Below, piece after piece: positions 8,356-61,517 of a stretch of DNA of 64,000 nt. The notes beneath the pieces are model-generated. The model was not told the origin of the DNA, ran no database searches, and saw only the letters and a list, made by a program, of their open reading frames with translations. Every line of letters starts with the position of its first letter. Position 1 is the stretch's first letter. Where the stretch lies: positions 1 through 64,000 of the IMG/VR virus record IMGVR_UViG_3300048623_000062. One strand, given 5' to 3'. The DNA is from a virus. Its lineage: Duplodnaviria; Caudoviricetes. A program made the position numbers and the translations under genes.

Positions 8356-8653
8356 TGGTCTCGATCTTCGAGAAGTTCGAGATCGCCTCTGGGGTGCAGT
8401 CCAGAACGTTGACAATGCCGGTGAGTAGTACGCTCGGCGCCGCAGCTCCGACACGAGAATTCTTCGCATTCGGACCACATGGACCATACGCGGCCAACGA
8501 CGTGATGCCGCCAGTACGTCCGTACCATTTTGCGATGTGCTGGCAGTTCAGCATCCGAACGCTCTTGGTTGCGACGATCTCATTGTCGTCAGCTTCGATC
8601 TGGCCGAAGTAGAGGCCGTAATTCTGGTTACCAACAATCACATACCGCTTCAT
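8345..8653 (-). CDS. Phage hypothetical protein usually found next to GDGYG-repeat ORFs (in-frame extension to 8818 possible)
   Basis: MKRYVIV...GLYFG...VNVLDCTPEAI; AAGGA RBS before ATG at 8653. Confidence 0.6.
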   Translation of the reverse strand: MKRYVIVGNQNYGLYFGQIEADDNEIVATKSVRMLNCQHIAKWYGRTGGITSLAAYGPCGPNAKNSRVGAAAPSVLLTGIVNVLDCTPEAISNFSKIETSEG

Positions 8654-9782: not shown

Positions 9783-10105
9783 ACCGCCAGGATCGATGAG
9801 CGCAGGACAGGAAGGTCGCCCTTCACCGTAACGTCGCGCACGACCCCAATCAGCACGACGTCCTCCCACTCGAAGAACTGCTCGATGAAGTGGTCGACGC
9901 GGTCGATGCCGTTCTTGCTCTCTCCGAGCTTGCTAAGCATCTTCAGGATGCCATCTGGCTGCCTCGACAAGACGCCCTGCATGGCCTGCGAGCCGCCTCG
10001 TATCAGCACGACGCACTCGAGCAGGACCTGACCGTCCGCGTCTTCGGTGCCGTTGGTATAGAACAGTTTATCGATGGTATTCTGCATCCGGGGGTTGTCG
10101 CTCAT
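9779..10105 (-). CDS. Hypothetical protein (Sm/SH3-like?)
   Basis: ORF track, coupled to GT gene. Confidence 0.55.
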   Translation of the reverse strand: MSDNPRMQNTIDKLFYTNGTEDADGQVLLECVVLIRGGSQAMQGVLSRQPDGILKMLSKLGESKNGIDRVDHFIEQFFEWEDVVLIGVVRDVTVKGDLPVLRSSILAV

Positions 10106-11277: not shown

Positions 11278-11531
11278 AGATCCTCCGGCCGGAACGTCCA
11301 CGTGCGATTGAACGGTATCCCGTCGGGCGCGATGATGACATCGACGACCAGTGGTCTGAGCGCACGGTCCGTACGCGCGTCGAGATACTCCGCCATGCCC
11401 CAGAAAACGTTCAGGTCACAGTGGCCAGTTTCTTCGGCGGCGATGACGCATGCCGGCCTCGTGAACAAGCGCTGCGATCTGCCCAGGCGGAAGTGAAACA
11501 GCACGATCTGCCCCATCGTTGGAATCTTCAT
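11274..11531 (-). CDS. Phage hypothetical protein, tandem paralog 2
   Basis: MKIPTMGQIVLFHF...RPA...WTFRPEDL. Confidence 0.7.
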   Translation of the reverse strand: MKIPTMGQIVLFHFRLGRSQRLFTRPACVIAAEETGHCDLNVFWGMAEYLDARTDRALRPLVVDVIIAPDGIPFNRTWTFRPEDL

Positions 11532-21895: not shown

Positions 21896-23962
21896 TCACC
21901 ACCCGTCCCTTTCGTTGAGTACGAAGTGGAAGGTGGCACCGCGATCGCTGATCTCGGACTCCGCGACCTCGTCGGGGTCGAGCGCGCCGATGAGGTCCGC
22001 GCGAGCGAGCACGAGCGCCCCGGTGCGGTTGAGCTCGACGAGTTTCTTCTTGAACTGGTCGTAGGTCATGCCGCCCAGCCGTGGATCGTCCTGGACGCGG
22101 CGCCAGATCGCCGAGACGAACACCTTGCTCCCGAAGCGGCCGTAGCCGCGTCCGTTGCGCTGGTCCTCGTCGGTCTTCTTGACCGCGTCGATGACCGCGT
22201 CGGCGACGCCGCCCACCGGCGCCACGACCGTCGCGGGCGCTGGACGCTGGACCACATGCCGAGTCACCGCCGGGGCCGGCCGCGCCGGGGAGCGCCGCGC
22301 AGCCTGATTGGGTTCGTTGACCACGAAGTGGTACGTCGCGCCGCGATCGTGAATCTCCGACCCGATCACCTCATTGTGGTCCATCGCGGCAACGAGGTCC
22401 GCGCGCGCCATCGTGAGCAAACGCTGGCGATGCGCCTCGAGCAGACGCCGCTTGAACTCCTCGGCGGACATCGAGGCGAACCGAGGGTAGTCCCGGAGGT
22501 CTCTCCAGATCGCCGCGATGAACACCTTCCGATCGCCGAATCGGCCGCGCGCCTCCCCCTCGACCTCGCTCTCGTCGCCGATCCCATCGGCCGCCACGTT
22601 GACCGCCTGGGCGAACTCCTCGATGGGCATCTCGCGCCGCGCAGACCGCGCAGGAGCCGCAGCCGGCGCATGCCCGAGACGCTGGCGATATGCCGCGTAC
22701 TGCAGCCGCGAGTCGCCCTCGAAGATACCGCCGGCGAGTTGCTCGTCGGTCAGCTTCACGTGCCGGCCATCCGCGCTGTCGAGGCTCAGCACTTTCTGCC
22801 GGCGCATGTCGTTCACGCCTGCGGTGAACTCCTCGTGCGAATACTGCGGCATCGCCTTGCGCAGGTCGTAGAGCAGTACGTAGTTGTGACCCTTGTCGAG
22901 CCGACGGAACGCCGTCTCGAAGTCGCGGGCGAAGTTCGCCGCGAACGCGCCGGGGTCCGGCAACGGGTCTGGCTTCACATGCGGCCCCGGCGCGGCGAGC
23001 AACCGGTCGTACTCGGCTGCCTCGCGCTCGTGGCGTCTCATGTCTCGCAAATCCGCGCGCGTCGCCCCGGTCTTGGTCGGCCGGGGGCGAGGCGGCGGGC
23101 TCAGCACTGCGTCGGGCGGTCGCGACAGCTTGACCGTCCGCGAGGCCACGGGCGACGGCGCACGCGCGGGCGAGCGAGGCGACTTCGGCTTCGACATCCG
23201 ATCCGTGTCGCGCGCGGGCCGCTTGGCGAAGATCACCTCCTTGAGGTCCTTGGCCAGCGCGCCGCCCTTGGCGAGGTATCGGTAGTGCTCGAACTCCGCC
23301 GCGGAGTTTCCGGTAAAGAACACAAACCGGTCGACGAGGTCCGGGCGATTCTCCTCCACCCAGTGAAACAGGTCGATGCCGCTCTTGTCGCCGAGCACAT
23401 CCACGTCGCTCACGATGAGGCCGACCATGTGGACCTTGATATTCGCGATCGCCGCGTCCACGTTGTCCGAGACGATGACCGGCGTGCCCTTGAAGATCCG
23501 CCCGAGCATCTTCGTGGTGCCGGCCTGCAGGACCGGATCGTCCTCGAGCAGGATGATGCGATCTTGGCTGTTCGCGGCGTGGACGTCTTGCTTGGCCGGG
23601 TTCTGCACCTCGGCGCCACCATCCCAGGTCAACTCGAGTTGGCCATCGCGGGACTCGAGCTCGGCCGTGAACGTCGGCACGCGGAGCCCGGCGCCATACA
23701 CCACCGAGTCCCACTCGCCACCGGCGCCCATCGCGTAGGACACCAGGATATCGCCGACGTCCGACGGACGGAGGTCCGACGCGGATCGGTGAAGTTGATC
23801 GGCGATGCCCACGAGGCCGGTGTGGTTCACCTCCTCGTAGAGGTGCGCGAGATCCTCGGCCGCCTTGCGCGCTGGCGCCGGCGCCTTGCCGCGGGTCTGC
23901 GATACGCTCTCCCAGAGCGCCTCGCTCATCTCATTGATCAGGCCGCCCCGAGACCACGTCAT
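21896..23962 (-). CDS. Multidomain protein: receiver-like domain plus repeated winged-helix-like domains
   Basis: IILLEDD...LIVSDV...FFTG...LAKG receiver motifs; two strong RFG.KVF..AIW...ARADL...SEI.DRGAT repeats and one weaker. Confidence 0.7.
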   Translation of the reverse strand: MTWSRGGLINEMSEALWESVSQTRGKAPAPARKAAEDLAHLYEEVNHTGLVGIADQLHRSASDLRPSDVGDILVSYAMGAGGEWDSVVYGAGLRVPTFTAELESRDGQLELTWDGGAEVQNPAKQDVHAANSQDRIILLEDDPVLQAGTTKMLGRIFKGTPVIVSDNVDAAIANIKVHMVGLIVSDVDVLGDKSGIDLFHWVEENRPDLVDRFVFFTGNSAAEFEHYRYLAKGGALAKDLKEVIFAKRPARDTDRMSKPKSPRSPARAPSPVASRTVKLSRPPDAVLSPPPRPRPTKTGATRADLRDMRRHEREAAEYDRLLAAPGPHVKPDPLPDPGAFAANFARDFETAFRRLDKGHNYVLLYDLRKAMPQYSHEEFTAGVNDMRRQKVLSLDSADGRHVKLTDEQLAGGIFEGDSRLQYAAYRQRLGHAPAAAPARSARREMPIEEFAQAVNVAADGIGDESEVEGEARGRFGDRKVFIAAIWRDLRDYPRFASMSAEEFKRRLLEAHRQRLLTMARADLVAAMDHNEVIGSEIHDRGATYHFVVNEPNQAARRSPARPAPAVTRHVVQRPAPATVVAPVGGVADAVIDAVKKTDEDQRNGRGYGRFGSKVFVSAIWRRVQDDPRLGGMTYDQFKKKLVELNRTGALVLARADLIGALDPDEVAESEISDRGATFHFVLNERDGW

Positions 23963-36759: not shown

Positions 36760-38430
36760 TTACTCGATGAGGGCGGCCCCGACCTTGCGCAGCCAGTTCT
36801 TGCCTGACTGCGATGAGAGGGGCGATTCACCCGGCAACTGTGCCACCTTCTGCATGAATAGGTCAATACCGGCCATCTCGGGCGAGTGATGCTTGCGCAG
36901 CCATGCCAGAATGTCGGCCGGGATGGCCGAGCGCCCGCTCTGCGCCACGATCTCCGGGTCCGCGCCGCCGCCGAATGCGTTCTCGAGGAACGTGATGAGC
37001 CGCTTGAGCTCGGCCGGGTCGACCACGGGGATCTCGATGGCCTCACCGTTCACGCCCGGCACGAGTTTGGGCTTCCGGGTGACCGGGCGGAGCGTGGTTC
37101 CATCCGTCGTCTTGTATCGCTGGCCAGTGGCCTCATTGACGATGATGCGCGGACGCGCGGGCGCCTGGGCCTGCTGCGGAGCCGCCGGCGCGGGCGCCGC
37201 CCCCTTGAACACCGAGGTCACTGCCCCGATATTCTCCGGGGTGAGCGCCCCGAAGATCTTGCCGATCGTCGAGGCATCCTCTTGATCATCGTCGCCTGCG
37301 ATGACCTCTTTGAGGTTCTTGATATCCTTCATCTGCTCGAGGAGCGGCTTTTCTTTCTTCTCGCGGAGTTCCTTCACCTCGATTCTAAGCTCGGCGTTGT
37401 CGCGCTCGAGGCGCCGCACGTCCGCGTTGAGCACGCTGACCTGGACGTCGTTGGTCGCCTTCATAGAGGCGATCGCCACCTCGTGCGACTGGCGTAGCGC
37501 GGTGATCTCGCGCTCGTAGCTCTGCTTGGTGTTCATCATCTCGCGCTCGTGCGCTCGCTCGGCCGCCTCCCTCGCGCGATCGTGGCGATCCTCGGCGCGC
37601 GCGATGTCCGCGTGCGCTGCCTCCTTGAGTTGGCGCACCTCTGATTCGTGCTGCGTGCGTAGCGCGAGCACCTGGCCGTTATTGCCGTCGATGGCGTTGG
37701 TGAGGATGCGGTCCAGCACCGGGTTCTCTGGTGGCTTCGTGTGGCGCATCTCCGATAGTTCGCGGCGCATGTCGGCGATCTCGCGCTCGCGCGAGCGCAC
37801 CGTCTCCTGCATCTGCTCGAACATCATCTGAACGCTTGGGTCGATGCCACGCGGCTCGTGGTCGTCCTTGCCGTCCTTGCGGTCGAGCAACTCCTTCATC
37901 GTATCCATCGCGATCTTCGCCATCTGCGGCGACTCGCTGTGAGAGGCGGTCCCCGGGGGTGCTATGCCCGTCTTGCCAGGGATCCGTGGCTCACCGGCGA
38001 TCTTCATCGTCCGATGGGCCTTGTACTCGAACGACCCCTTGGCGTTGGGCAGCATGATGCGGAGGTTGTACTTGCCACCGCCGTGCTCGTTGCGGAGGAA
38101 TTCCTCGTCGAAACGCTCCTCGTACGTGTGGAGGTATCCCTCGATGGACACCATCTGACCCGTCGCCGGGTCGCGTACTTCCCGGGGGCTCTCTCGGCGA
38201 ACGACGATGCGCATGGCGCCGCCCTTGCCGATCTCGCTGAGCCAGTCATGGAGTGACTTCTCGTCCTCGGTCTTGATGGCCTGCATGACCGGGGATAGCC
38301 GCTCGGGCGCAACCGCCGCCGGCACCGGCGCGGCCTTCCCCTTGGTGCGCTTCGCCTCCGGCGGCGACTCATCGACACCAGCTTTCAGATCATCCTCGGT
38401 CATGTCGAGCGCGGCGACTTCCTTCATCAC
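36760..38430 (-). CDS. Large coiled-coil protein of morphogenesis block
   Basis: EHGGGKYNLRI N-domain followed by long E/R-rich coiled coil. Confidence 0.7.
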   Translation of the reverse strand: MMKEVAALDMTEDDLKAGVDESPPEAKRTKGKAAPVPAAVAPERLSPVMQAIKTEDEKSLHDWLSEIGKGGAMRIVVRRESPREVRDPATGQMVSIEGYLHTYEERFDEEFLRNEHGGGKYNLRIMLPNAKGSFEYKAHRTMKIAGEPRIPGKTGIAPPGTASHSESPQMAKIAMDTMKELLDRKDGKDDHEPRGIDPSVQMMFEQMQETVRSREREIADMRRELSEMRHTKPPENPVLDRILTNAIDGNNGQVLALRTQHESEVRQLKEAAHADIARAEDRHDRAREAAERAHEREMMNTKQSYEREITALRQSHEVAIASMKATNDVQVSVLNADVRRLERDNAELRIEVKELREKKEKPLLEQMKDIKNLKEVIAGDDDQEDASTIGKIFGALTPENIGAVTSVFKGAAPAPAAPQQAQAPARPRIIVNEATGQRYKTTDGTTLRPVTRKPKLVPGVNGEAIEIPVVDPAELKRLITFLENAFGGGADPEIVAQSGRSAIPADILAWLRKHHSPEMAGIDLFMQKVAQLPGESPLSSQSGKNWLRKVGAALIE

Positions 38431-38849: not shown

Positions 38850-39561
38850 TTGTCTCCCTGGTGCTCGGTAGCGGTTCGTTGTTGAGGATCATCTCGCGAA
38901 TGCGCGCTCGCGCGTGCGCGGCAGCTGCGGCGTGGGCGGCGTTGTGACTCGAGTTGTGAAATTTCCGGTCCGGGAACTGATCGCACCAGGCGCACCGCAT
39001 GGACGGCGCATCGTAGTCATCGTCTCGACCAGATATCGTCGACGAGAACGTGCAGAGCGCGAATTCCGCCTCGACCTGTGCGTCGAGAATCAGCCGCTCC
39101 GCTTCCTCGGCTTCACGCATGGCTTTGCGCCGGCGCCCCTCCCACCGCGCGACCTGGTACGCAAAGTCACCCCCATCCTTGGACTGCCGGTAGGCGCGTT
39201 CGCGCTTCCTGCGCCCCTCGTCCGGCGCCACCGGTTCCCACCGGTTGCACTCCGTTACCGGCATCACCCCCAGCGGCATCTCGATGCCAGTGTCCGGGTA
39301 GCAATAGCGGTGCGTCTCGGCGTGGAACGGCACTGGGGGCTGGTAGGTGCCCCCCCCAACCCCCGGAACGATCACAGGTAGGCGCCTCACTTTGGGGGGT
39401 TCGGCGTCGACCTGAATGCGGAACCGGTGGTAGTGGCGGCATGGCCCCGCCTCGCACAGGCTCGGGCGAGGGTCCGGGGGCGGACGCTGGGCCGTGAGCG
39501 ACGCAGGAGCGTCGAGGTCGACCCCGTGGGAGGGGTCCGTGGGGGCGGTAATTGTGCGCAT
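38824..39561 (-). CDS. Cys/His-rich hypothetical protein
   Basis: CEAGPCRHYH, CAWC motifs; first gene of left arm. Confidence 0.55.
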   Translation of the reverse strand: MRTITAPTDPSHGVDLDAPASLTAQRPPPDPRPSLCEAGPCRHYHRFRIQVDAEPPKVRRLPVIVPGVGGGTYQPPVPFHAETHRYCYPDTGIEMPLGVMPVTECNRWEPVAPDEGRRKRERAYRQSKDGGDFAYQVARWEGRRRKAMREAEEAERLILDAQVEAEFALCTFSSTISGRDDDYDAPSMRCAWCDQFPDRKFHNSSHNAAHAAAAAHARARIREMILNNEPLPSTRETNEHRTTEE

Positions 39562-39583
39562 GCCGCATCATGCCAGTCTCATG

Positions 39584-39784
39584 CGGGGTTTCCGTGGGAC
39601 GAGTGTGGGTTTTCCGTGGGTTTTCCAAGCCCCAGATCTGGGTACCTGGAGCCCCAGGGAGATCTCCGACCCCACCCTGTAGCGTAGGGACGCCTCACCC
39701 AAGCACTGAAAACCCTCTAGGAAACCCTCTGAGTGGTGAAATCCGCCCGGTCTGGTGTGTCCAAAAGTCGACAGTTCACCACTC
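39584..39784. promoter_or_regulatory. Repeat-rich control region at main strand-divergence point
   Basis: GGGTTT(T)CC x3 (39584-39626), inverted G(A)AAACCC x2 (39708-39728), 10-bp IR GAGTGGTGAA/TTCACCACTC (39731-39784). Confidence 0.6.
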
Positions 39785-39828
39785 CGGAGTGGCCGAGCGG
39801 CGCGTTAACCCCGGTCGTCTCGTCGATC

Positions 39829-39841
39829 TTGCCACTGGCAA
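39829..39841. repeat. Dispersed palindrome copy (intergenic)
   Basis: cTTGCCACTGGCAAg. Confidence 0.9.
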
Positions 39842-39890
39842 GGCGTTCGCATTACTTCTGGGAGTCGGGCGGTTGTCGCCTGGCCCTGAC

Positions 39891-39923
39891 ACCGCCCCTT
39901 GGGGGAAGGAGAGTTCTGAGATG
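39891..39923 (+). repeat. Early-region element family A, partial copy (3' part)
   Basis: ACCGCCCCTTGGGGGAAGGAG..TTCTGAGATG. Confidence 0.8.
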
Positions 39924-40088
39924 AGCCGAAAATTCTACAAGGACAATGGTCGCGCAGAGATGTCGGCGCGGATCGCCGGTGGGGGCGGCTGGTGGCTATC
40001 CGACTGCCCATATACCGGATGGCGCCGCGAAGCCTGGCAGGCTGGCGCATGGTCCGCCATGCAGTCGGCGCGAAAGGCTGGAAAGTAG
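39921..40088 (+). CDS. Small early protein (55 aa, not in ORF track)
   Basis: AAGGAG RBS; MSRKFYKDNGRAEM... Confidence 0.55.
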   Translation: MSRKFYKDNGRAEMSARIAGGGGWWLSDCPYTGWRREAWQAGAWSAMQSARKAGK

Positions 40089-40337
40089 ATGCGCGCCATC
40101 CTCCTAGGCGTTCTCCTGTCGGCATGCGCCGTAGAGGCGCCCGAACCCGCCCCGGCGCCCGAGGCCAGTGCGTTCCCGTTGCCGCGGTGCAAGACGACGC
40201 ACTGCACCACGGTGGAGTGCACGGACGACAGCGGCGTGTGCACATGCCACTGGCCACCGGCGTACGACATTCTCTGTGAGGGTGTCGAGGGTGACGCGAT
40301 GGGCGATGGCCACGACCACACTCACGGTGCGCCGTGA
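40089..40337 (+). CDS. Cys-rich lipoprotein-like protein
   Basis: Signal with LSAC lipobox; HCTTV.C...CTCHWPPA.DI.C. Confidence 0.65.
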   Translation: MRAILLGVLLSACAVEAPEPAPAPEASAFPLPRCKTTHCTTVECTDDSGVCTCHWPPAYDILCEGVEGDAMGDGHDHTHGAP

Positions 40338-40510
40338 ACGCGAAACAGGCGCGGTACGCCGCGCAACTACTCAGCACCACGCTCAAGACGCGGGCCGCAC
40401 TTGCGGCGAGGCCCTGGACGGTCAAGCTGGACGGGCGGTTCTACGGTCGCTACGCCTCCGAGGGAGAGGCACGCGCCAAGGCGGACGAGATTGGCGGAAC
40501 AACTCCGTAG
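40334..40510 (+). CDS. Small early protein
   Basis: GTG overlaps upstream TGA; manual translation 58 aa. Confidence 0.5.
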   Translation: MNAKQARYAAQLLSTTLKTRAALAARPWTVKLDGRFYGRYASEGEARAKADEIGGTTP

Positions 40511-40609
40511 GGGGTACAGATTCGCCAGGGTCGGCCGACCCACCCTGACGAGCCGATACTGCTACCGAGCCACACCGCACCGCCCCTTGGGGGAAGGAGT
40601 TCTGAGATG
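40501..40609 (+). repeat. Early-region element family A, full copy
   Basis: AACTCCGTAGGGGGTACAG-hairpin-GAGCCGATACTGCTACCGAGC...CCCCTTGGGGGAAGGAGTTCTGAGATG. Confidence 0.9.
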
Positions 40610-40825
40610 AGCAAGAAATTCGCACCAGGGATGAAGGTTCGCTTCACTGCGAAGTTCCTTCGAAACACCGGGTCGTACACTGGCAGTGCGGGGCTTGACC
40701 GGTGGGTCGTTCAGCCGTGCGACTGCAGCCTGTGCGGCACTGGCGACTTCGTCGCCACCGACGAGTCCAGCGACTACGGTGGACAGCGTCACATCAACGT
40801 TGACAACCTGCAGGCAGTACGCTGA
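40607..40825 (+). CDS. Small SH3-like early protein
   Basis: FAPGMKVRF...; RBS inside repeat. Confidence 0.65.
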   Translation: MSKKFAPGMKVRFTAKFLRNTGSYTGSAGLDRWVVQPCDCSLCGTGDFVATDESSDYGGQRHINVDNLQAVR

Positions 40826-41076
40826 TGTACGTCAGCGTCTACTGCAACGAAGGAATGGATAGCGGGTTGGTGTACCTTCTCAACGAGCGGACATTCGCCG
40901 ATCAGGTTGCGGATGAGAGGGAGGCCACGATCGCCGAGCCTGACGGATACATTCCCAACTGCTGCGGGGATCTCCGTGTGGAGTTCACCGACCGCGTTCC
41001 CCACGTCATCGGTGAACGATACCAGGGCAGCACGTGCATTTGGTCCGGGGCCTCGTTTTACTTCGAGGGCCGCTAA
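40825..41076 (+). CDS. Early hypothetical protein
   Basis: TGATG coupling. Confidence 0.55.
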   Translation: MYVSVYCNEGMDSGLVYLLNERTFADQVADEREATIAEPDGYIPNCCGDLRVEFTDRVPHVIGERYQGSTCIWSGASFYFEGR

Positions 41077-41080
41077 GAAA

Positions 41081-41344
41081 ATGCGTCGCGCCGTCATCCT
41101 GCAACTCGTCGAGGGAGTGCGCGTGCTGCCGTCGGTGGGGATCCGTAGGCACCGGATCACCCTGACGCACCGCCCGACCCTCCGTCGCCTTACCCTGCCT
41201 CGCCCCAGCGTGGTTGTTGGTCCGGCCATCTACGACTCTCGCGTAGACCCTCCGAGGTTTTCGCACTGGTCGGCCGTGGCCACCCTGCTTCTCCTGACGG
41301 TGCTTTGCGCATGCGTCGGGTTTGTTGAGTTACCCCACAGGTAA
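41081..41344 (+). CDS. Early protein with C-terminal TM
   Basis: ATG at 41081; AVATLLLLTVLCACVG. Confidence 0.5.
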   Translation: MRRAVILQLVEGVRVLPSVGIRRHRITLTHRPTLRRLTLPRPSVVVGPAIYDSRVDPPRFSHWSAVATLLLLTVLCACVGFVELPHR

Positions 41345-41505
41345 CTCTACGGCGATGCTCCCTGGCCGAACTAGAGAGCATGAGCCGCAAAGCACACCAG
41401 CCTACCCTCCCAATTCTGCCGTCAGACATTGGTCGCCGGACACCAGAGTTAGACCTCGCGGTCTGCTACTACCACCAAACCCGGACTTTCCACAGGACGC
41501 CAATC

Positions 41506-41766
41506 ATGACATCGAACGAATACCACGAAGCACGGATACGTGAGTTCGGCGCCGAATGGTTGGGCAGGTTGGCACGTGAGCAGCACACCCAGGACGCTAT
41601 TAAACCGTGGGTCGTACTTGCGTACAAGCGTAACGTGCGTAACGTGCGTGATTTCGCCATCGTGGCTGGCTACAACCGCTGGACTGGCGAGAGCATCCAC
41701 TGGATCGTGCCGTCAATCACCGATGACGAGCGCTACGACATTTCCGCAGCTGTCGAGGTGACCTGA
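41506..41766 (+). CDS. Early hypothetical protein
   Basis: CAGGA RBS before ATG at 41506. Confidence 0.55.
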   Translation: MTSNEYHEARIREFGAEWLGRLAREQHTQDAIKPWVVLAYKRNVRNVRDFAIVAGYNRWTGESIHWIVPSITDDERYDISAAVEVT

Positions 41767-41961
41767 ATGCAGACCTACAAGATCGTCCGCCTGTTTTTCA
41801 ACAGCAATGCAAGGCGCGTCATCCGCAGGCGTCTGACCCTGTCCGAGGCGCAACGGCATTGCCAGGACCCAGAAACATCGTCCAGCACGTGCACCAAGTC
41901 GGCTGGCAAGCGTCGCACGAAATTGCGCGGGCGGTGGTTTGACTCGTATACGAAGGAGTAA
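41767..41961 (+). CDS. Conserved small phage protein
   Basis: YKIVR...LTLSEAQRHCQDPETSS...WFDSY. Confidence 0.65.
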   Translation: MQTYKIVRLFFNSNARRVIRRRLTLSEAQRHCQDPETSSSTCTKSAGKRRTKLRGRWFDSYTKE

Positions 41962-42069
41962 CTCTGTAGGGGGTACAGATTCGCCAGGGTCGGCCGACCC
42001 ACTCTGACGAGCCGATACTGCTACCGAGCCAACACCGCACCGCCCCTTGGGGGAAGGAGTTCTGAAATG
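41960..42069 (+). repeat. Early-region element family A, full copy
   Basis: Near-identical to 40501-40609. Confidence 0.9.
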
Positions 42070-42375
42070 AGCGAGAAATCGACCGAGCAAGATCCGGCCA
42101 TCCTCGTGGCCGAGGGAACCATAGGCGCGAACCGCTGGCGCCAATACTTCGTGATCACGGATCGTCGCTGTGCGATCGTGGAGATGAGCGAAGCGCTCCT
42201 CTGTGGTTGGCGCTTCGCTCGGGTCACTGTCCAGGGTGAGGAAGACTGGCCGATGCCCAAGGCGAAGATTGTGCAGTGGAAATTCGCAAACGGCGACTAC
42301 GCCGTCGCGCCGGACCTAGGCGATTTCAGGAATGCGCTGCTCAAGGTCGCTAGCGCCGGAGCCATCGAGCGATGA
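42067..42375 (+). CDS. Early hypothetical protein
   Basis: RBS inside repeat A. Confidence 0.6.
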   Translation: MSEKSTEQDPAILVAEGTIGANRWRQYFVITDRRCAIVEMSEALLCGWRFARVTVQGEEDWPMPKAKIVQWKFANGDYAVAPDLGDFRNALLKVASAGAIER

Positions 42376-42458
42376 CGTGCTACGTCCATCAGGATCCCCG
42401 CTTGCTGCCACGCAGGCTCGGTCGGCGGTGCGGTGATACCATTCTCGGAGGCGAAGCG

Positions 42459-42692
42459 ATGACTGAGCAGTCACTCGAAGGCGCGCTAGCGGATCTCCAG
42501 TCGGAGCACGATGCCGACGTTGACGCACGGCTTCACGCGGTCGCGTGTGCAATCTCCGAGGAAACCGGATGCCAACCGCTCACGGCCATCCGGTCTATGC
42601 TGCAGAACGCCAAAGGCATCGGCGAGCGTCTGACTCTCTCGACGGAAACGGTCGAGACGTGGTGCCGAGAAGCAGACTTCGACGACGAGTAG
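42459..42692 (+). CDS. Early acidic hypothetical protein
   Basis: GGAGG RBS before ATG at 42459. Confidence 0.55.
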   Translation: MTEQSLEGALADLQSEHDADVDARLHAVACAISEETGCQPLTAIRSMLQNAKGIGERLTLSTETVETWCREADFDDE

Positions 42693-42694
42693 CA

Positions 42695-42790
42695 GGGGCA
42701 TGGCGCCCATCGGTGGCACCGGGGATTGTCTCGGTGCACTGACTGACGCCACGCACAGACACCCCGCTCATGGAGCGGAGGGAGATTGAG
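42695..42790 (+). repeat. Early-region element family B, copy 1
   Basis: GGGGCATGGCGCCCATCGGT-GCACCGGGG...TCTCGGTGC-ACTGACTGACGCCACG, then CCGCTC-ATG-GAGCGG hairpin. Confidence 0.85.
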
Positions 42791-43492
42791 ATGAAGAAAT
42801 TCGCGAACGTTTGCGCCACGCTTGCCACGCTCATGGTTCCCGGGGTCGCTTTGGCCGCCACTGGCGCCGCACCGGAGTCCGGAGTGGCAGGGATCGTCAC
42901 GGGGGTTGCCGGACTGGTAACTGCATGTGCTGGACTGGTGACCGCGATGCGTGGCATCCGGTTGGCACGGCGCGCGGATGCGCGCGCCAAGAGCGCCGTG
43001 AAATGGGCAGACCGACTCGCCAACGCACACGAGGACGGGGTAGTCCTCGTTCTCAGTTACCCTGCGGCACGCGTCTCGTGCCGAGGATTGCTTGAAGCAA
43101 ATGGGTGGCGAATCTGCCATTACCCAGTGACGCAAGCCGAGCTTGATCGCGGTGTATTTTTGCCTGGCCCGCACACGGTCGCTGACGTCTGCGTGGCAGA
43201 CGCGATAGTGGTGGAGGGGCTAAGCGACACCGACATGTCGAAGCTTGCGACCGTGCGGGAATTTCGCGACAATATCCGGCTGGGTGCTGGAGTCGTCATG
43301 TTTACCGCCGGGTCAAACACCCGGTACGACCTGACGGCGTGGGGAGAATGCGATCAGGGGGTGACGACCCCCGTGACCTGTGAGGCCGCTGTCCGCGCCT
43401 CCCTCGCACGCCGAGCGGCTACGGCGCGGCGTCAGGGGATCCGACCGGGGACGCTGTCACAAGCACGTGCATCGCTGCTGAACGCGGACTAG
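42791..43492 (+). CDS. Membrane-anchored protein with Rossmann/receiver-like C-domain
   Basis: Signal/TM segments then VVLVLSY, DAIVVEG, VVMFTAG strands. Confidence 0.6.
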   Translation: MKKFANVCATLATLMVPGVALAATGAAPESGVAGIVTGVAGLVTACAGLVTAMRGIRLARRADARAKSAVKWADRLANAHEDGVVLVLSYPAARVSCRGLLEANGWRICHYPVTQAELDRGVFLPGPHTVADVCVADAIVVEGLSDTDMSKLATVREFRDNIRLGAGVVMFTAGSNTRYDLTAWGECDQGVTTPVTCEAAVRASLARRAATARRQGIRPGTLSQARASLLNAD

Positions 43493-43496
43493 ACAC

Positions 43497-43563
43497 GGGG
43501 GCATGGCGCCCATCGGTAGCACCAAGGGCTGGTCTTTGGTGCGCTGACTGACGCCACGACACA
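43497..43563 (+). repeat. Early-region element family B, copy 2
   Basis: Same flanks; stem GCACCAAGG/CTTTGGTGC shows compensatory changes. Confidence 0.85.
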
Positions 43564-43575
43564 GGGGGTTCTGAG

Positions 43576-44286
43576 ATGACGCTCTACCGCAACGTGTACA
43601 AACTCGGCCGGAAGCTCGACGCAATCATTGCTATTGACGAGGATTCGCCGCTTTCGACTCCGGTCGGCGCCGAATGGGACGACACGATCGATCACGTCAG
43701 GGTCGCCGCTACGGTCATTCTACCGACCGACGTCGCAGGCAATATCCACGTCGACCTGCTAGGTAGCAACGTCGCTGTGGCAGGGGTTCATGTCGCCTAT
43801 ATCTGGGGCGAGCGCTGCCCTGTGGGGCGACAACGGGTAATCCGACTCGGCGCCGAGACGCTTGCCGACGCAGTAGCGGCCGTGCGACAGGGGCTCGAGT
43901 GTGACCTTTCCGAACTCCGTGCACATGTAGGGCGCCGAGACGCACGCATCCAGTTGCGCGAGGGTCGCCTCGCTCACGGGCGAAGCGTAATGCCACCAAG
44001 GCAGGAGTTGGTGGCGCGGTTCGATGTGACGGGCATGGCGCTGGGCGAGGTGTCCGCTCTCGCTGCCGAGGTTGTCGCCCAAGCGGAAGCGTGCGAGGAA
44101 CACCCGGACGTCACTGTCCGGGTTGAGATACCGGACGGAATCACCGATGACGGTGCGTTTCCCGCACACTGCGTCGACGCCACGGAGGCGCCCACCGCCC
44201 GGATCCGCGTTCCGATGGATGCGGTACCCGAGGAGTTGGACGACTGGGGCCAGCCGACCACGCCGCGCTCCGGGCCGTCGGACTGA
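43576..44286 (+). CDS. Early hypothetical protein
   Basis: ORF track; follows element B. Confidence 0.65.
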   Translation: MTLYRNVYKLGRKLDAIIAIDEDSPLSTPVGAEWDDTIDHVRVAATVILPTDVAGNIHVDLLGSNVAVAGVHVAYIWGERCPVGRQRVIRLGAETLADAVAAVRQGLECDLSELRAHVGRRDARIQLREGRLAHGRSVMPPRQELVARFDVTGMALGEVSALAAEVVAQAEACEEHPDVTVRVEIPDGITDDGAFPAHCVDATEAPTARIRVPMDAVPEELDDWGQPTTPRSGPSD

Positions 44287-44309
44287 GTCCAAACCACACA
44301 GGAGATAGC

Positions 44310-44459
44310 ATGCGCTGCGACAAAGAGATCGGCCGGATCGGCCACTGGCACCAATGCGACCGTACTGCTGTGGTCACGGTGGCATCGAAAACCATCCACA
44401 GCCCAACGCTGTTCATGAACTACTGCGACAAACACAAGCCGCTCAAGGATGGCAAGTAG
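44310..44459 (+). CDS. Small Zn-finger protein (49 aa)
   Basis: AGGAG RBS; C...C...YCDKH. Confidence 0.5.
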   Translation: MRCDKEIGRIGHWHQCDRTAVVTVASKTIHSPTLFMNYCDKHKPLKDGK

Positions 44460-44461
44460 CC

Positions 44462-44569
44462 ATGACCGTCCGCGCCGATCCAGCCTACCGCGGCGTCGCC
44501 CTACACCTTGGCCACACTGCCAGGTCGTGGATCGCCGAGCAACGCATTCTCGCTGCCGGCGGTCGGTAG
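44462..44569 (+). CDS. Very small early protein
   Basis: Stop coincides with start of element A copy. Confidence 0.35.
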   Translation: MTVRADPAYRGVALHLGHTARSWIAEQRILAAGGR

Positions 44570-44672
44570 GGGGTACAGGTTTCACCGCGGATGGTCGATT
44601 CATCCCGGTGAGCCGATACTGCTACCGAGCGACAACCGCAACCGCCCTCCTGGAGGGCAAGGAGCCACCATG
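44566..44672 (+). repeat. Early-region element family A, diverged copy
   Basis: Conserved GTAGGGGGTACAG and GAGCCGATACTGCTACCGAGC flanks; different but still paired stems. Confidence 0.85.
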
Positions 44673-45200
44673 GGTAAGAAGGAACTGGAAACCGCCTGCA
44701 TCGAGCTCGGACTCACGATCGAGGCGTTCTTCGTGCCGTACTCGCAGAGCGAGAACGCAAAGATGAGCGCTGGTAGCGATAGGCCGTGGCGCTCGCTAAA
44801 CTGGACGATCGTCTTGCGCTGCAAGGGCAGTGAAATCCTCCGCACCAACTTCGCCGCTGGAGTAGGTCACACGCCGACGTGGGCATCGGGGACGTGGGCA
44901 TCGGGGGCATCGAGTCGCGCCGATGTCGCAGCGGCGATCGCGCGAGAGATCGAGACTGGCCGCGCCAACGGCAAGCCAATCCTCCCAGACCGCATCGACT
45001 GCATCGCCAGCGTGGTCGCCGACGCGGACGTGCTCGACTTCCCCGACTTCGAGGCGTTCGCCGGCGAGCTTGGCTACAACCCCGACAGCCGTCACGCAGA
45101 GCGGATCTACAACGCCTGTGTGAAGACCGCCATAGCACTGCGCGCTGCCGTTGGCGAGGATGGCCTCGCTAAACTCCGCGCGGCCAGGGAGGACTACTAG
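44670..45200 (+). CDS. Conserved phage hypothetical protein
   Basis: AAGGAG RBS; FEAFAGELGYNPDSRHAERIYNAC. Confidence 0.7.
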   Translation: MGKKELETACIELGLTIEAFFVPYSQSENAKMSAGSDRPWRSLNWTIVLRCKGSEILRTNFAAGVGHTPTWASGTWASGASSRADVAAAIAREIETGRANGKPILPDRIDCIASVVADADVLDFPDFEAFAGELGYNPDSRHAERIYNACVKTAIALRAAVGEDGLAKLRAAREDY

Positions 45201-45204
45201 GCTC

Positions 45205-45405
45205 ATGGCGACGCCATACGAGATCGCGAGTGAAGCCCATCGGCAAGCCGCGTCGTTGTACGCTAAGGCGTCGAGCGCCTACCGCGCTCGCACGATCGGC
45301 GACGCCGAATTTCTCGCGGCTAGGGCTGCATTCGATGCGGCCACCGCGGCATTCGATGCGGCGTACGCCGCCGAGGAAGCGCGAGTGCTGGCGGGGGAGT
45401 CATGA
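45205..45405 (+). CDS. Ala-rich helical small protein
   Basis: ATG at 45205. Confidence 0.5.
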   Translation: MATPYEIASEAHRQAASLYAKASSAYRARTIGDAEFLAARAAFDAATAAFDAAYAAEEARVLAGES

Positions 45406-45893
45406 CCGACATTTGCCAGTGGCAAGAGTCGGAAGCGGTGCGCCTCGGCAGCACCGACCAGCAGTTGCTGTACGCCTCTGGGCAACTCCGCGAGGAGGAC
45501 CTCACCTCACTAGCTCGCAATGCGCTGTTCGCTCCGCTCTCTGTCCTGCGTCCTAGGCGCCAGATGTCACCCACCGTCATCCGTCATCCCGTGGACGCGT
45601 CCACCGGCCGGTGGACCTGCGCACCGGACGGCCGACGTTTACCAGTTCGGTGGTCAACTACACTTACGTCCGAGCTTACGGACATGGAGTTAGCCTCTCT
45701 CGCTGCGGTGGAGATCGCAGTCGAGCGCATGAACCTCAATGAGTGGTTGATCCGAGCGCGCGTTTACGCCACGATTCAACCACGGCTTCACCGGGGATAC
45801 TGCACGGCATGCCTGCAGTCCGCCGCTGAAGTATCCGCTCTCGTCTCGGTCTCTTGGGCCGGACGCACCCTTTCCCGGGAGTACGCACTATGA
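45402..45893 (+). CDS. Hypothetical protein
   Basis: GGGGGAG RBS; coupled. Confidence 0.55.
   Translation: MTDICQWQESEAVRLGSTDQQLLYASGQLREEDLTSLARNALFAPLSVLRPRRQMSPTVIRHPVDASTGRWTCAPDGRRLPVRWSTTLTSELTDMELASLAAVEIAVERMNLNEWLIRARVYATIQPRLHRGYCTACLQSAAEVSALVSVSWAGRTLSREYAL
45413..45425. repeat. Dispersed palindrome copy
   Basis: TTGCCAGTGGCAA; inside CDS (CQWQ frame). Confidence 0.9.
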
Positions 45894-46276
45894 GCCGCCA
45901 TACTCGCTCCTACGCGGAGCGCCCCGCATCGCGCGTCGTCGCAATCCCGTCCCTTCGTGCGACCACGGAGATCCCGACGCCACCGCCGCGCCATATTCCA
46001 TCGTCGCTGGACGACTTCGGAGACCAGACCGACCACGGTCACCACTCCATCACCGGGATCCCGGCGATGGAGTGCAACCGGCCCGCACTCGCGCCGTGGG
46101 CCGTCCAGAATGGCGTATTGGCGGTCCTCCAGGCGACCGGGGGGTACGTGTCCGCTCATGACGCCATGGCGGGCTCGGTCGATCACATCGACGAGCTCGA
46201 ACAACTCATCGTGCGCCTCACGGCGCGCGACGCACTTCACATCCCGTTCGTTCAACCGGAAAGGATCCCTTCATGA
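45890..46276 (+). CDS. Hypothetical protein
   Basis: ATG overlaps upstream TGA. Confidence 0.5.
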   Translation: MSRHTRSYAERPASRVVAIPSLRATTEIPTPPPRHIPSSLDDFGDQTDHGHHSITGIPAMECNRPALAPWAVQNGVLAVLQATGGYVSAHDAMAGSVDHIDELEQLIVRLTARDALHIPFVQPERIPS

Positions 46277-46470
46277 CCCTCAGCGCCCTCAAAACCCAGA
46301 AGACCGTGTACCAGTCCGGCCACACGCCGGAGGTCCGCCCCACGCATCGCTGCAAGCAGAGCATCACGCTCGACGGCGCCAAGTACCCATGCCTGCTGAA
46401 CATCGAGCACCACGGGATGCATGACGGGTTCGCCGTCCATCCCGTCGACGGCAACGTCGTCCTCTGGTAG
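46273..46470 (+). CDS. Small Cys/His protein
   Basis: AAGGA RBS; C...C...H.G.H. Confidence 0.55.
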   Translation: MTLSALKTQKTVYQSGHTPEVRPTHRCKQSITLDGAKYPCLLNIEHHGMHDGFAVHPVDGNVVLW

Positions 46471-46498
46471 TCCCTCCCCCTCCTACCAGAGGCGATAA

Positions 46499-46545
46499 CC
46501 CCGGCGCGAATCCCTCCCCCGTTCCCGCGCCGGGGTCTGCAGGAT
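46499..46545 (+). terminator. GC-rich intergenic hairpin (terminator or processing site)
   Basis: CCCCGGCGCG...CGCGCCGGGG inverted repeat; no clear U-tract. Confidence 0.4.
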
Positions 46546-46562
46546 CTGCCCTACCTGCACTG

Positions 46563-47186
46563 ATGAGCCAGGGCCACGGAGATTCTTATATGACCGAGCA
46601 CGCCAACACCGAATACCCCCGCCTCACGGACGATCGCCAGTGGCATCGCTATTCGTACAACATCGGTTCCCCGTACGACGACTGGGCGACCGCGCGCAAG
46701 GATGCACAGCGCGAGCTCGAGGCGTTGCCACTGGGTGCCGCAATCGTCGATGTCCACTGGGCGGGCGGCGACGGCTACCTGGTCGTGCGGCCGACTGTCG
46801 AGGACGCCGAGCGCTACCTCGACGAGTTGGTGGACCGGCACCGCGGAACCCGGCCGAGTCGACATTACGCCGACCTGACCTATCCGGGATGCAGCGAGAG
46901 CAGTGCGGTCGTCCTTGTGGTCAAGGCGGCTATCGACTCTGTACGACGAAACGCGGTCACCGATGACGACCTACGCAAGCTGCAGCAGGAGGCCGAGGCC
47001 GCTCACGATTTTGACACGGTCTATCTCGTCAACTGCGCGCTCGACCTGCCAGGTCCGGCGCCGAAGATGCCACCGGGCGACGCGCGGGCCAAGTTGGAGC
47101 AGCACATCATGGACGTGCGCAAGGCGCGCATGGATGAGGCCAGAAGCAAACTCTCGGACGTTGTCTGCGAGCTCTGGAATTCCTGA
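46563..47186 (+). CDS. Hypothetical protein
   Basis: ORF track; alternative start 46590. Confidence 0.6.
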   Translation: MSQGHGDSYMTEHANTEYPRLTDDRQWHRYSYNIGSPYDDWATARKDAQRELEALPLGAAIVDVHWAGGDGYLVVRPTVEDAERYLDELVDRHRGTRPSRHYADLTYPGCSESSAVVLVVKAAIDSVRRNAVTDDDLRKLQQEAEAAHDFDTVYLVNCALDLPGPAPKMPPGDARAKLEQHIMDVRKARMDEARSKLSDVVCELWNS

Positions 47187-49256: not shown

Positions 49257-50288
49257 TCTCGACCACGCTCTACAACGAGAACGACGACTTCGCAGCCACC
49301 TGGCTGGAAAGCCTCATCGCCCATGGCCACATCGCGCAAGGAACCGTCGACCGACGCTCCATCGCCGACCTCACCCCAGCCGACGTTTCCGGGCCTGGAC
49401 AGCGCCACTTCTTCGCCGGGATTGGCGGATGGTCCCATGCCCTACGCCTCGCCGGAGTCAGCGACGATACCGACGTCTGGACAGGGAGTTGCCCCTGCCA
49501 GCCGTTCTCGGACGCGGGCAAGGGGGGGCGGAGTTCTCGACCCTCGACATCTTTGGCCGGCATGGTTCTCACTCATCCGCGAGTGCCGCCCTCCAATCAT
49601 CTTTGGAGAGCAGGTTGCGAGCCGCGATGGTCTCGAGTGGTTCGACGCTGTTTCGACTGACCTGGAACGATGCGATTACGCCGTCGGGGCGGCGGATCTA
49701 TGCGCTGCGGGCGTCGGTGCTCCGCACATCCGACAGCGGCTGTACTTCGTGGCCTACGCCATTGGCGACCGACGGCTCAAAGGCATCGGCGTACAGCAAC
49801 CGCAACGGCGACCCGAACCAGCCGTGCCTCAAGCTGACCGGAGCGGCGAAGATGGCGGCGTGGCCGACGCCGGTGGCACGGGACCACAAAACGGGCGGGA
49901 TGGACAGCCAGCTATCGACCGTGGCTCCGCTCGCAGCATGGGCAACCCCGGCCGCACACGAGGCGGGCGGAACGCCGGAGACGTTCATGGCGCGCAAGAC
50001 GAAGTGCGCGGAGCGAGCCGCGGACCGGGGCGTGAGCATGGGCGTCTCGTTGACGTCGCTGGCGATGCAGGTGCAACTCGCGGATTCTGGAACCCAGCCG
50101 ACTGGATCCTCTGCCGAGACCCAGCCGGGGGTCAGCCGGTCGCCCGGCCAGTTGAACCCGGAGCATTCCCGCTGGCTGCAGGGGTACCCGGCCGCGTGGG
50201 GCTCTTGCGGGGCTACGGCAACGCCATCGTCCCGCAAGTCGCCGCCCAGTTCATCCAAGCGGCGCTCCAAGCCATAGGAACGGCGTAG
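49253..50288 (+). pseudogene. C5 cytosine DNA methyltransferase alpha chain, frameshifted by one extra G in G7 run (49522-49528)
   Basis: HFFAGIGGW, GSCPCQPFS in frame 1; DPRHLWP, GEQV, APHIRQRLYFVA, GYGNAIVPQVA in next frame; removing one G gives GKGGGVLDPRHLWP. Confidence 0.85.
49323..50277 (+). CDS. Overlapping alternative-frame MTase beta chain (WPTP repeats, motif IX); start uncertain, also crosses G7 run
   Basis: SAALQSSLESRL, WPTP x2 plus WATP, GQLNPEHSRWLQGYP in ORF 49429-50277. Confidence 0.7.
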
Positions 50289-59857: not shown

Positions 59858-60742
59858 CTATCGTCGCCTGCGCTTCGCGCGTTCAACCACGGGCGGCGCC
59901 TTGAGCAGCCCGCTCACGAGGCCAGCGCCGATGTTGTCGAGCTCGTCCTGCGACACCGCGCTCACGTAGCGCGCTGCGGTCTCCATGCTCTCCCACCCCA
60001 TGTACCGCTGTAGCTTCACGATCGCGTTCGGGTCGCCGGCCAACTGGTTCAGGTAGTTCGTCGCGAACGTGTGCCGGTAGCGGTGCGGAGACATGTTCGC
60101 GATGTCGACCTTCGCTGCGGTCCGCTTCGCCGCGCGATACACCATCACCCGAGCCACCTCCGGGTTATCTGATGCGCTGATGAGATCGCGGACGCGCTCC
60201 CAGTCGGAGAAATCGGCGAGCTCGCGCAATTGCGCCCGGATCGGCTCGGCAGAGATCTCCATGCGCTTGCGACCCTTACCTTCGTACACAAGCTTGCCAG
60301 TGGCAAGCGCGCGCTGCACATCGGCGTTCTGCATGCGCAGGACGTCACTGCAGCGAAGCCCACGGATGGCCATAATGAGCAGCACCTGGCGCATCGCCTC
60401 GTTGCGCATTGAGCACGTCTGCATGTGCTGGATGACCTCGCGCCACTGCTCGAGGTCGAGCGGTTGCTTGGTGGTCAGGCGTCTGGCCGGAGGGAGTCGG
60501 ATGTCCTTGAGTACCTCGGCCATCTCCGGGTTCTTGGAGAACTTCGCCCACGCGCGCAGCGCAGCCATGTTGGTGCGCAGCGAGTTCGGGGCCAGGCGGC
60601 CGGCCACGAGGCGCCGGGTGAGTTGGCGATCCTTGGCGCATGACTTCAGGTTCGACACGTAGAGCGCCGCCGTGCCGATTGACCGACCGCGGTCGAGAAC
60701 CCAAGAGCGGAACTTCGCGAGGTTATGCTCGGTGATTTCCAT
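59858..60742 (-). CDS. Tyrosine recombinase (integrase/resolvase)
   Basis: RGLRCSD (R), GKG (K), PHRYRHTFA (HxxR), YMGW, ARY (Y); likely start 60742 or 60766. Confidence 0.9.
   Translation of the reverse strand: MEITEHNLAKFRSWVLDRGRSIGTAALYVSNLKSCAKDRQLTRRLVAGRLAPNSLRTNMAALRAWAKFSKNPEMAEVLKDIRLPPARRLTTKQPLDLEQWREVIQHMQTCSMRNEAMRQVLLIMAIRGLRCSDVLRMQNADVQRALATGKLVYEGKGRKRMEISAEPIRAQLRELADFSDWERVRDLISASDNPEVARVMVYRAAKRTAAKVDIANMSPHRYRHTFATNYLNQLAGDPNAIVKLQRYMGWESMETAARYVSAVSQDELDNIGAGLVSGLLKAPPVVERAKRRRR
60294..60306. repeat. Dispersed palindrome copy
   Basis: gcTTGCCAGTGGCAAgc (17 bp); inside recombinase CDS (LATGK frame). Confidence 0.9.
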
Positions 60743-60764
60743 CGGCAGCGGTAGGATACCATTC

Positions 60765-61517
60765 ATGGTGAGCGCGCGAACGTTTGTCGATAATCCGCCA
60801 TGGGCAACCCAACTACTGGCCAATGCATACGAGTCTCTCGAGGCTCGTGTTCGGCCGGACTGGTTGCCCAAGCTATCTCGGGTCACTGCCGGCAAGGCAA
60901 CGCAGCGATCCGCGAAGGTCGTGATGAAGGCCGAGATGCGGGAGTACGGCTGCGGCGCCTTCGGATGCGTCATGCCGACGCTTGATGAAACCGTTGTTCT
61001 GAAGCTCACCTCCGACGACACCGAGGCCGAGTTCGCGAGGGGGATCGCCGCCACGCTCGTCGCGCCGATCTGCGTCCGCTACTACGACATCCTCGAGACG
61101 GATCAAACCTTCAAGGGGGAGAGGGTCTGGCTCCTCTGGCGCGACAGCGCCAACTACGTGGGCGACGTCTACGCCGCCTTCGGTGACATGAAGGGCGACG
61201 TGGCGTCGCATCTCATCAATGAGCAGCACCGGTCAGCAGCGTTCGTGCTCGTCAAGGTGTGGAAGATGAGCAAGCAAGGCACCAAGGGCGACCTGTCGGC
61301 GGTCGCCCCGGAGATCAAGATCTGGCGCGCCAGCGTGCAGGACATCATCGCGTCGGCCGTCAAACCGATCGCTGACCTGTTCTCTGGCGTCCTCCGGGTG
61401 TTTGACGAACAGAGGATCTTCATCGGCGACGTGCACGAGGGAAACGTTGGACAGGTGACCCAGGACGGCGTGGAGCGGTGGGTAATCACTGACCCAGGTC
61501 ACGTGGTGGTGTTCTAG
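60765..61517 (+). CDS. Atypical protein kinase-like enzyme
   Basis: YGCGAFGCV Gly loop, VVLKLT, DVHEGNV catalytic loop, ITDPG. Confidence 0.8.
   Translation: MVSARTFVDNPPWATQLLANAYESLEARVRPDWLPKLSRVTAGKATQRSAKVVMKAEMREYGCGAFGCVMPTLDETVVLKLTSDDTEAEFARGIAATLVAPICVRYYDILETDQTFKGERVWLLWRDSANYVGDVYAAFGDMKGDVASHLINEQHRSAAFVLVKVWKMSKQGTKGDLSAVAPEIKIWRASVQDIIASAVKPIADLFSGVLRVFDEQRIFIGDVHEGNVGQVTQDGVERWVITDPGHVVVF

Follow-up and report, generated by a model that had tools for sequence, protein, structure and literature searches.

We analyzed the first 64 kb (the window) of the IMG/VR record IMGVR_UViG_3300048623_000062 of an uncultivated soil virus (G000; linear, 81,143 bp, about 94% complete, 64% G+C) and describe here family A, a repeat of about 105 bases whose copies all lie on the plus strand between the stop codon of one early gene and the start codon of the next. 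The comparison of 12 copies of its long hairpin from six viruses supports family A as a real element under selection for structure, and its sequence and position suggest, with a probability that we put at about one half, that it is a two-part cis-acting leader cassette in a long early transcript. “Early” is the label that we give in this analysis to the rightward (plus-strand) arm of the genome. Codon-position G+C indicates minus-strand genes from position 1 to 39561 and small plus-strand genes from 39921 on, and family A therefore lies at the start of this arm.

A first-pass annotation of the same DNA had proposed three full copies of the repeat (E1 to E3; Table 1) and a partial one, and this count was confirmed by all searches that we made. 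The 20-mer GAGCCGATACTGCTACCGAG occurs exactly three times (40550, 42009, and 44610), always on the plus strand and against 0 expected occurrences, while the 3' motif CCGCCCCTTGGGGGAAGGAG is found at 39892, 40580, and 42040 with 0.02 expected. BLAST and a covariance model, run over the whole 81-kb record, recovered three full copies, one copy of the 3' part only, and nothing more. The placement of the copies from stop codon to ATG was likewise correct, but their bounds had to be revised, as the repeat starts about 10 nt before the upstream stop codon and reaches 4 to 5 codons into the next gene (ATGAGC(A/G)AGAAAT), where it reads ATGAGCAAGAAAT in E1, ATGAGCGAGAAAT in E2, and ATGAGCCGAAAAT in the partial copy. 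In the uncorrected bounds, E1 starts at the TAG 40508-40510 of a 58-amino-acid gene, E2 starts 6 nt past the TAA at 41959-41961, and E3 begins at the TAG of a small open reading frame (ORF; 44567-44569). Full copies end in AAGGAG, a spacing of 5 to 7 nt, and the ATG, with a Shine-Dalgarno (SD) region that reads GGGGGAAGGAG or GGGCAAGGAG, and only a subset of the early genes has such an element.

Searches of reference collections matched no described family. Rfam, as suggested by the first-pass annotation, gave no match over the whole window at the gathering score and only two weak matches at E ≤ 5 in 39500-45000, neither of them overlapping an element, and the phage database INPHARED had no match to the region (near mode) or to one element (distant mode). 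Patterns of the conserved flanks, run against viral, metagenome, and genome collections, found one other virus, IMGVR_UViG_3300023270_000001 (G001; 86,414 bp with direct terminal repeats), whose corresponding arm has three full copies and a partial one, together with fragments identical to it. Among these fragments, L018 had been considered as a third mosaic genotype and was ruled out by its 100% identity to G001. Further pattern matches (L006, L015, and L020-L026) proved to be chance occurrences in unrelated DNA that scored 7 to 14 bits with the covariance model or not at all, and a contig of lower G+C (L027) has a homologue of the 72-amino-acid downstream gene, but without an element.

More distant early arms were fetched through a 556-amino-acid marker protein that is encoded beside the early arm (L036-L039, plus four complete IMG/VR genomes of 75 to 83 kb, L040-L043). 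Following up weak matches of a first covariance model (R1), we identified homologous counterparts of the long hairpin, hereafter module 1, in L038 (two copies), L040, and L041. R1 gave nothing convincing in L036, L037, L039, L042, and L043, or in the four complete relatives beyond their early arms. A second model (R2), built only from these four distant copies, re-found E3 and two G001 copies and contributed two new ones, of which the first is a diverged copy in G001 (L013:9878-9917) and the second lies in L042; models from either subgroup thus detect the other. This covariance-model search, of the kind that had been recommended, gave a total of 12 module 1 copies in six viruses whose marker proteins are only 40-92% identical. 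Every one of the 12 lies in the gap from a stop codon to the next start codon and points the same way as the genes.

Folded singly, all copies of module 1 (about 50-75 nt) adopt one topology that consists of a lower stem (P1), an internal loop, a closing G-C pair, and an upper stem of 10 to 13 bp. The internal loop is 2x2 (5'-CA/GA-3') or, in four copies, 3x3 (CCA/GAU), and the alignment of all 12 copies (A8) shows no variation in CAG, in CGA, or in the closing G-C pair. When folded with flanks, the copies of the window and G001 form an additional outer helix P0 (CUCnGUAG/CUACnGAG) in which P1 (GGUA/UACU) is nested and which includes the upstream UAG; the conservation of CTACCGAG is explained by this pairing. 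In E1, for instance, P0 includes the stop codon TAG 40508-40510 of a 58-amino-acid gene and is followed by P1, the CA/GA loop, and the upper stem. Helix lengths in window and G001 copies are 7 bp (P0), 4 bp (P1), 1 bp, and 10-13 bp (upper stem), while the distant copies have a helix of 17-18 bp in total. P0 and P1 replace the outer stem GGTACAG/CTGCTACC of the first-pass annotation, since the distant homologues co-vary in P1 and have no counterpart of the GGTACAG register.

Only P1 and the closing pair were counted column by column (in A8), and upper stems were judged from single folds, because the bulge register differs between the subgroups and no single column-wise structure of the upper stem exists. 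Across A8, 86% of P1 cells are paired compared to 77% in shuffles, with two-sided changes from G.U to U-A in four copies and from U-A to C-G in one, and the covariation score was reached by none of 500 shuffles. Slid registers pair at 26-57%, except for one +3 register that is allowed by the palindromic GUAC. The upper stems come in five sequences, all of them paired (CCAGGGU/ACCCUG(A); CGGAUG/CAUCC; CCACCGAG/CUCGGUGG; CCGAUC/GAUCGG; CUGAGCC/GGCUUG), and single changes within a type keep the pairing (C.A to U-A, G-C to G.U, and U.G to C-G). E3, with UCACCG-C-GGAUG/CAUCC-CGGUGA unlike E1 and E2, is the copy (placed at 44566 by the first-pass annotation) that was said to keep the flanks and swap in different stems, and the folds agree that both its upper stem and its small hairpin are different and fully paired. 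Selection on structure, which had been proposed from this one variant, is now supported by 12 copies. Folding z-scores range from -2.5 to -5.2 for type II and distant copies and from -1.3 (E1) to -7.0 (G1_27776) for type I; E2 (-1.0) and G1_26573 (-1.9) were folded only with flanks, and the two copies found later scored -1.7 (G001) and -0.3 (L042) with flanks.

The 3' part of family A (module 2) is built around a perfect G+C hairpin of 4 to 8 bp with a loop of 2 to 5 nt that ends 0 to 3 nt before the SD. More than eight different paired sequences were found for it, among them CCCC/GGGG, CCGCCCC/GGGGCGG, GCCCUC/GAGGGC, GCCCC/GGGGC, CCCUCC/GGAGGG, and CCUCC/GGAGG. The first early leader of G000, G001, L037, L038, L039, L040, and L041, that is, of every relative that could be checked, has a hairpin of this kind before the SD, and the partial copy in the window can therefore be seen as the ancestral form of the leader. 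By this sequence comparison, family A would be the ancestral first-gene leader with a long hairpin placed in front. A leader on the minus strand of L038 (4381-4480) consists of a long perfect hairpin after the stop codon that is unrelated to family A (z-score -3.3), a C/A-rich linker, a small GC hairpin, and the SD, and the two-part layout seems to be more general than family A itself. A further pair of repeats in the window, family B, has the architecture of family A with a different sequence, GCGCCCAUCGGU-(stem)-CACUGACUGACGCC. Its two copies flank a gene that is not in G001, which retains one family B copy. Family B-like sequences were found by eye, without alignment, in L037 (6529-6604 and 3851-3956, minus strand; marker 44% identical), with apical stems that differ and are still paired, and family B appears to be a second conserved structured leader.

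A comparison of cassette order among relatives, also recommended beforehand, revealed that the genes around the elements differ between G000 and G001. The first gene after the leader is not the same, G001 has an extra gene with an extra element as well as another extra gene before E1, and E2 is missing from it along with the 64-amino-acid gene 41767-41961. E3 and its orthologue in G001 are 90.5% identical over a shared block of 148 nt (blastn) and 86% over the longer stretch compared, and the genes on both sides of them are non-homologous. Breakpoints lie at the 3' edge of the element, at or just after the ATG and about 45 nt downstream of the hairpin; between L040 and L041, homology ends 9 nt past the ATG. 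At the junction after gene 43576-44286, module 1 is present in G001 (L013:9838-9935, minus strand; G001 23837-23934; GGCA-CAG...CGA-UGCU) and absent from the window (counterpart 44287-44309) while linker and SD are common to both, which indicates that the hairpin module can be gained or lost alone. The identity of E1 to E2 is 95%, against only 86% to the positional orthologue, and paralogues that are closer to each other than to orthologues point to gene conversion or recent copying. The 102-amino-acid gene downstream of E2 has a homologue (47.5% amino acid identity) behind an A-type element in the distant L038, so that the association of gene and element must be old.

We propose that module 1, which is located at or directly behind the upstream stop codon, would be recognized by a double-strand-specific endoribonuclease, such as a host enzyme of the RNase III type, or by another RNA-binding factor, and that the transcript would be cut or marked there between two cistrons, with a 3' hairpin left to protect the upstream message. 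The C/A-rich single-stranded spacer of module 2 and its G+C hairpin, which directly abuts a strong AAGGAG, would keep the ribosome-binding site open and insulated from upstream sequence. After processing, module 2 may also serve as a cap at the 5' end of the downstream message. Since the cassette is conserved and the surrounding genes are not, it would further offer homology for swapping, inserting, and deleting early ORFan genes. This action at the RNA level, be it cleavage or binding, and any effect on stability or translation are what we infer from the co-orientation of the copies, their site at cistron boundaries, the two-turn helix with its internal loop, and the spacer with its SD-proximal hairpin. 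A typical RNase III substrate spans two helical turns; with an internal loop, only one strand is cut, and a 3' hairpin stays behind as protection (PMC1540722). No sigma-70-like promoter (the host's promoter type may differ) and no plus-strand terminator was found in 39000-47000, as would be expected of a long polycistronic transcript that needs processing. Among the options listed by the first-pass annotation, a cis-acting RNA is the best supported one through orientation, position, and coupling to the ribosome-binding site, whereas put-like antitermination has no specific support.

The closest parallel to this reading are the early RNase III sites of phage T7 (R0.3 to R1.3, including the R1.1 RNA), which likewise are related irregular hairpins between the early cistrons of one long transcript. 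Each has an internal loop that interrupts about two helical turns, and the 3' hairpin that remains after cleavage protects the message upstream (PMC1540722; Dunn and Studier 1983 cited there). The predicted folds of family A show the same arrangement of about two stacked helical turns broken by an internal loop. Unlike the T7 sites, to which it has no sequence similarity, family A has a small (2x2 or 3x3) and invariant loop and a second hairpin that abuts the SD, and its cleavage is proposed by analogy only.

Several observations weigh against RNA processing as the role of family A. The virus encodes no RNase III, and an internal loop that never changes is more the mark of a site bound in a sequence-specific manner than of a substrate of RNase III, an enzyme with weak sequence preferences. 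Whole-copy z-scores are unremarkable (+0.55 for E1 and +1.22 for E2), which means that the evidence for structure is comparative rather than energetic, and folding energy neither favors the plus strand over the minus strand nor separates RNA from DNA. The covariation stems from few independent lineages, i.e., six genomes and five stem types of which some share the CACCG/CGGUG base. As to gene exchange, breakpoints scored by eye fell at three of four A-type starts and around five of 13 other starts, from which no enrichment is demonstrable with two genome pairs. Because breakpoints are frequent at gene starts that lack an element, too, we take recombination to be a by-product of conserved leaders, as has been proposed for the promoter early stem-loops (PeSLs) of T4-type phages (PMC2839356, PMC4122927).

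The invariant loop would fit a specific binding factor equally well, and we therefore keep as the main rival, albeit as an unlikely one, the idea that module 1 is the operator of a virus-encoded RNA-binding regulator (a translational repressor, a nut/boxB-like antiterminator partner, or a put-like RNA acting on the polymerase) that co-regulates its early genes without any cleavage. Invariance exactly in the loop of all copies with helices that vary is the usual signature of protein recognition, the restriction of the element to some early genes would suit a regulon, and repression might involve the small hairpin beside the SD. The put sites of HK022 and the nut sites of lambda likewise are structured cis-acting RNAs of early transcripts with two hairpins and a short spacer. 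However, these sites number one or two per system and sit just downstream of promoters, whereas family A is found in three to four copies at internal junctions and matches them neither in sequence nor through Rfam. No candidate binding protein was identified either, and none of the 10 small early-arm genes tested has a Pfam family.

A terminator/promoter cassette of the PeSL type, in which the long hairpin would attenuate transcription and an internal promoter restart it, seems improbable to us. PeSLs are repeated intergenic motifs beside ORFans in plastic early regions where recombination between copies causes indels and replacements, and family A matches them in position, size, repetition, and association with indels (PMC2839356, PMC4122927). 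ORFans are flanked by its copies, and indels or replacements have their junctions there at E2, at E3, at the first-gene leader, and between L040 and L041. GATACT in the hairpin is similar to a -10 hexamer. Yet a PeSL combines a strong sigma-70-like promoter with a terminator stem-loop. Family A has no promoter-like site, as described above, and its stable stem-loop is followed by no U-tract and was not called as a plus-strand terminator. The last T of GATACT is replaced by A in four distant copies and by G in a fifth (L042), always with the pairing kept, and such a change together with the pairing partner fits a base-paired strand and not a -10 hexamer. Family A further differs from PeSLs in having an SD-proximal hairpin and in reaching into the first codons of the next gene. 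The hairpin DNA promoter that the first-pass annotation had considered is not supported either, in view of the covariation of this T, the lack of a promoter-like site, and, within the window, the lack of an ORF above about 950 amino acids that might encode a giant virion RNA polymerase of the N4 type. A search for a single-subunit RNA polymerase (PF00940) found nothing, but its controls also gave no match. Two simpler ideas were discarded: the recurrent CTGAC as a -35 element, for which no spacing fits; and stop-codon read-through, as in-frame reading closes 13 codons past the UAG of E1. An intrinsic terminator is not supported by the stem-loop, which is stable but lacks the U-tract and was not called in the scan.

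We also give little credence to family A working as DNA. In that case, a recombinase, nuclease, or replication protein would act on the element in a folded single-stranded or cruciform state and thereby move single-gene cassettes. Each gene cassette of an integron likewise has a single structured site (attC), and family A resembles attC in its conserved ends and variable paired center. Both strands of family A fold about equally well, an orthologous junction can have module 1 or lack it, and relatives differ in their cassettes. But attC requires core sites RYYYAAC...GTTRRRY at the ends of the fold, and reading of the sequence shows no GTTRRRY core site in any family A copy. There is no integron integrase, either: the sole tyrosine recombinase is a generic one that reaches 23 bits with the integron integrase model TIGR02249 against a cut-off of 265, and its best matches are generic Xer-like models, all of them far under their cut-offs. 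The element sits 5' of its gene, always fused to SD and start codon and in gene orientation in all 12 cases, the junctions lie about 45 nt downstream at the ATG instead of in the hairpin ends, and there are no target-site duplications. The recombination site postulated by the first-pass annotation is therefore not upheld as a site-specific one, while homologous exchange at family A is plausible in view of the breakpoints at the 3' edge and the similarity of paralogues.

The leader-like layout of family A finds another counterpart in the start-associated sequences (SAS) and extended start-associated sequences (ESAS) of Cluster K mycobacteriophages. These are start-site motifs on a subset of genes, often after an imperfect inverted repeat with a variable spacer and in one orientation, which are conserved with the gene family and have no known function (PMC3203893). 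Family A is alike in layout only. Its SD region does not match the 13-mer of SAS, GGGATAGGAGCCC, which itself contains the SD, whereas the conserved part of family A is the internal loop about 50 nt upstream, within helices that vary with compensation. Overall, family A is of the same general kind as the T7 sites, PeSLs, and SAS/ESAS (PMC3203893) without being a member of any, and it is absent from Rfam and INPHARED.

The 556-amino-acid marker protein has no Pfam or PHROG match and marks the virus group, with 40 relatives at identities down to 30%. Soil and litter metagenomes have yielded at least eight large viral contigs (about 72-89 kb) of this marker-bearing group (the window, L014, and L036-L043), and the gene order around the marker is common to the group. 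Five of the contigs, about 75-86 kb long and with direct terminal repeats, are complete according to IMG/VR. Most large ORFs of the window that were tested matched neither PHROG nor Pfam; there was no match to terminase, portal, or capsid families among them, and a scan for tRNAs and tmRNAs found none. The few matches and other features are listed in Table 1. They include a 13-bp palindrome, TTGCCA(G/C)TGGCAA, of which the window has 11 copies in coding and intergenic DNA against 0.05 expected. One copy lies in the divergent control region just 5' of the first early leader, and this site is kept in G001, L037, L038, and L039; the palindrome looks like a dispersed operator or a partition-type site.

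Table 1. Coordinates of family A copies and of other features in the window and, where stated, in the remainder of G000.
Feature	Position	Strand	Remarks
Partial copy (3' module only)	39890..39923	+	leader of first early gene; ATG 39921
Partial copy, parts	39895-39904 (small hairpin)	+	C/A-rich stretch, small hairpin CCCC-TT-GGGG, AAGGAG; 94% identical to E1 positions 71-102
E1	40498..40609	+	long interrupted hairpin 40503-40569; ATG 40607
E1, parts	40570-40599	+	C/A-rich linker 40570-40582, small hairpin 40583-40592, SD 40594-40599
E2	41957..42069	+	95% identical to E1; hairpin 41962-42028, small hairpin 42043-42052, ATG 42067
E3 (type II)	44555..44672	+	hairpin 44560-44632 with longer P0; z-score -4.4
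E3, parts	44644-44664	+	small hairpin GCCCUC-cug-GAGGGC 44644-44658, SD 44659-44664, ATG 44670
Family B copy 1	42694-42770	+
Family B copy 2	43497-43575	+
Gene between family B copies	42791-43492		233 amino acids
Marker protein	36760-38430	-	556 amino acids; beside early arm
Tandem repeats	7906-8403		26 copies of 12/18-nt units (GCCGNNGCCGNN...) inside minus-strand late region; probably encode a low-complexity repeat protein
ORF	10102-11301		weak match to group-1 glycosyltransferase
ORF	13875-15140		match to NAD-dependent sugar epimerase/dehydratase
ORF	16801-19632	-	943 amino acids; looks like a repetitive, fiber-like structural protein
Repeats in this ORF	17635-19013		8-13 repeats of 117-135 nt
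ORF	49323-50288		DNA methyltransferase match (PHROG 363)
ORF	59858-61054		generic tyrosine recombinase match
TTGCCA(G/C)TGGCAA	4702, 11127, 13262, 14921, 24411, 35511, 39829, 45413, 50310, 55831, 60294		window
TTGCCA(G/C)TGGCAA	65810, 69053, 74855		beyond the window in G000

With family A, a large group of soil viruses that are uncultivated and almost wholly unannotated now has a concrete RNA motif that can be aligned. Should our reading of it fail, it would be one more intergenic repeat without an assigned function. A more far-reaching interpretation, which we put forward as a tentative and rather unlikely one, is that the invariant CAG/CGA-loop hairpin and the pre-SD hairpin together define portable expression units and make up a class of viral RNA element not described before. 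An ORFan gene joined to it by homologous exchange would then be processed from the early transcript and translated at a set level, and a group of soil viruses of about 75-90 kb would have an integron-like gene-cassette economy that works without an integrase and is read by an RNA-binding or RNA-cleaving factor. The insulating hairpin before the SD may also be of interest to designers of context-independent expression parts. If family A is indeed a leader cassette, it would show how this group expresses and exchanges its fast-turning early ORFan genes, and it would be the third independent case, after the PeSLs of T4-type phages and the SAS/ESAS of Cluster K, of phages putting standard regulatory leaders on shuffled genes.

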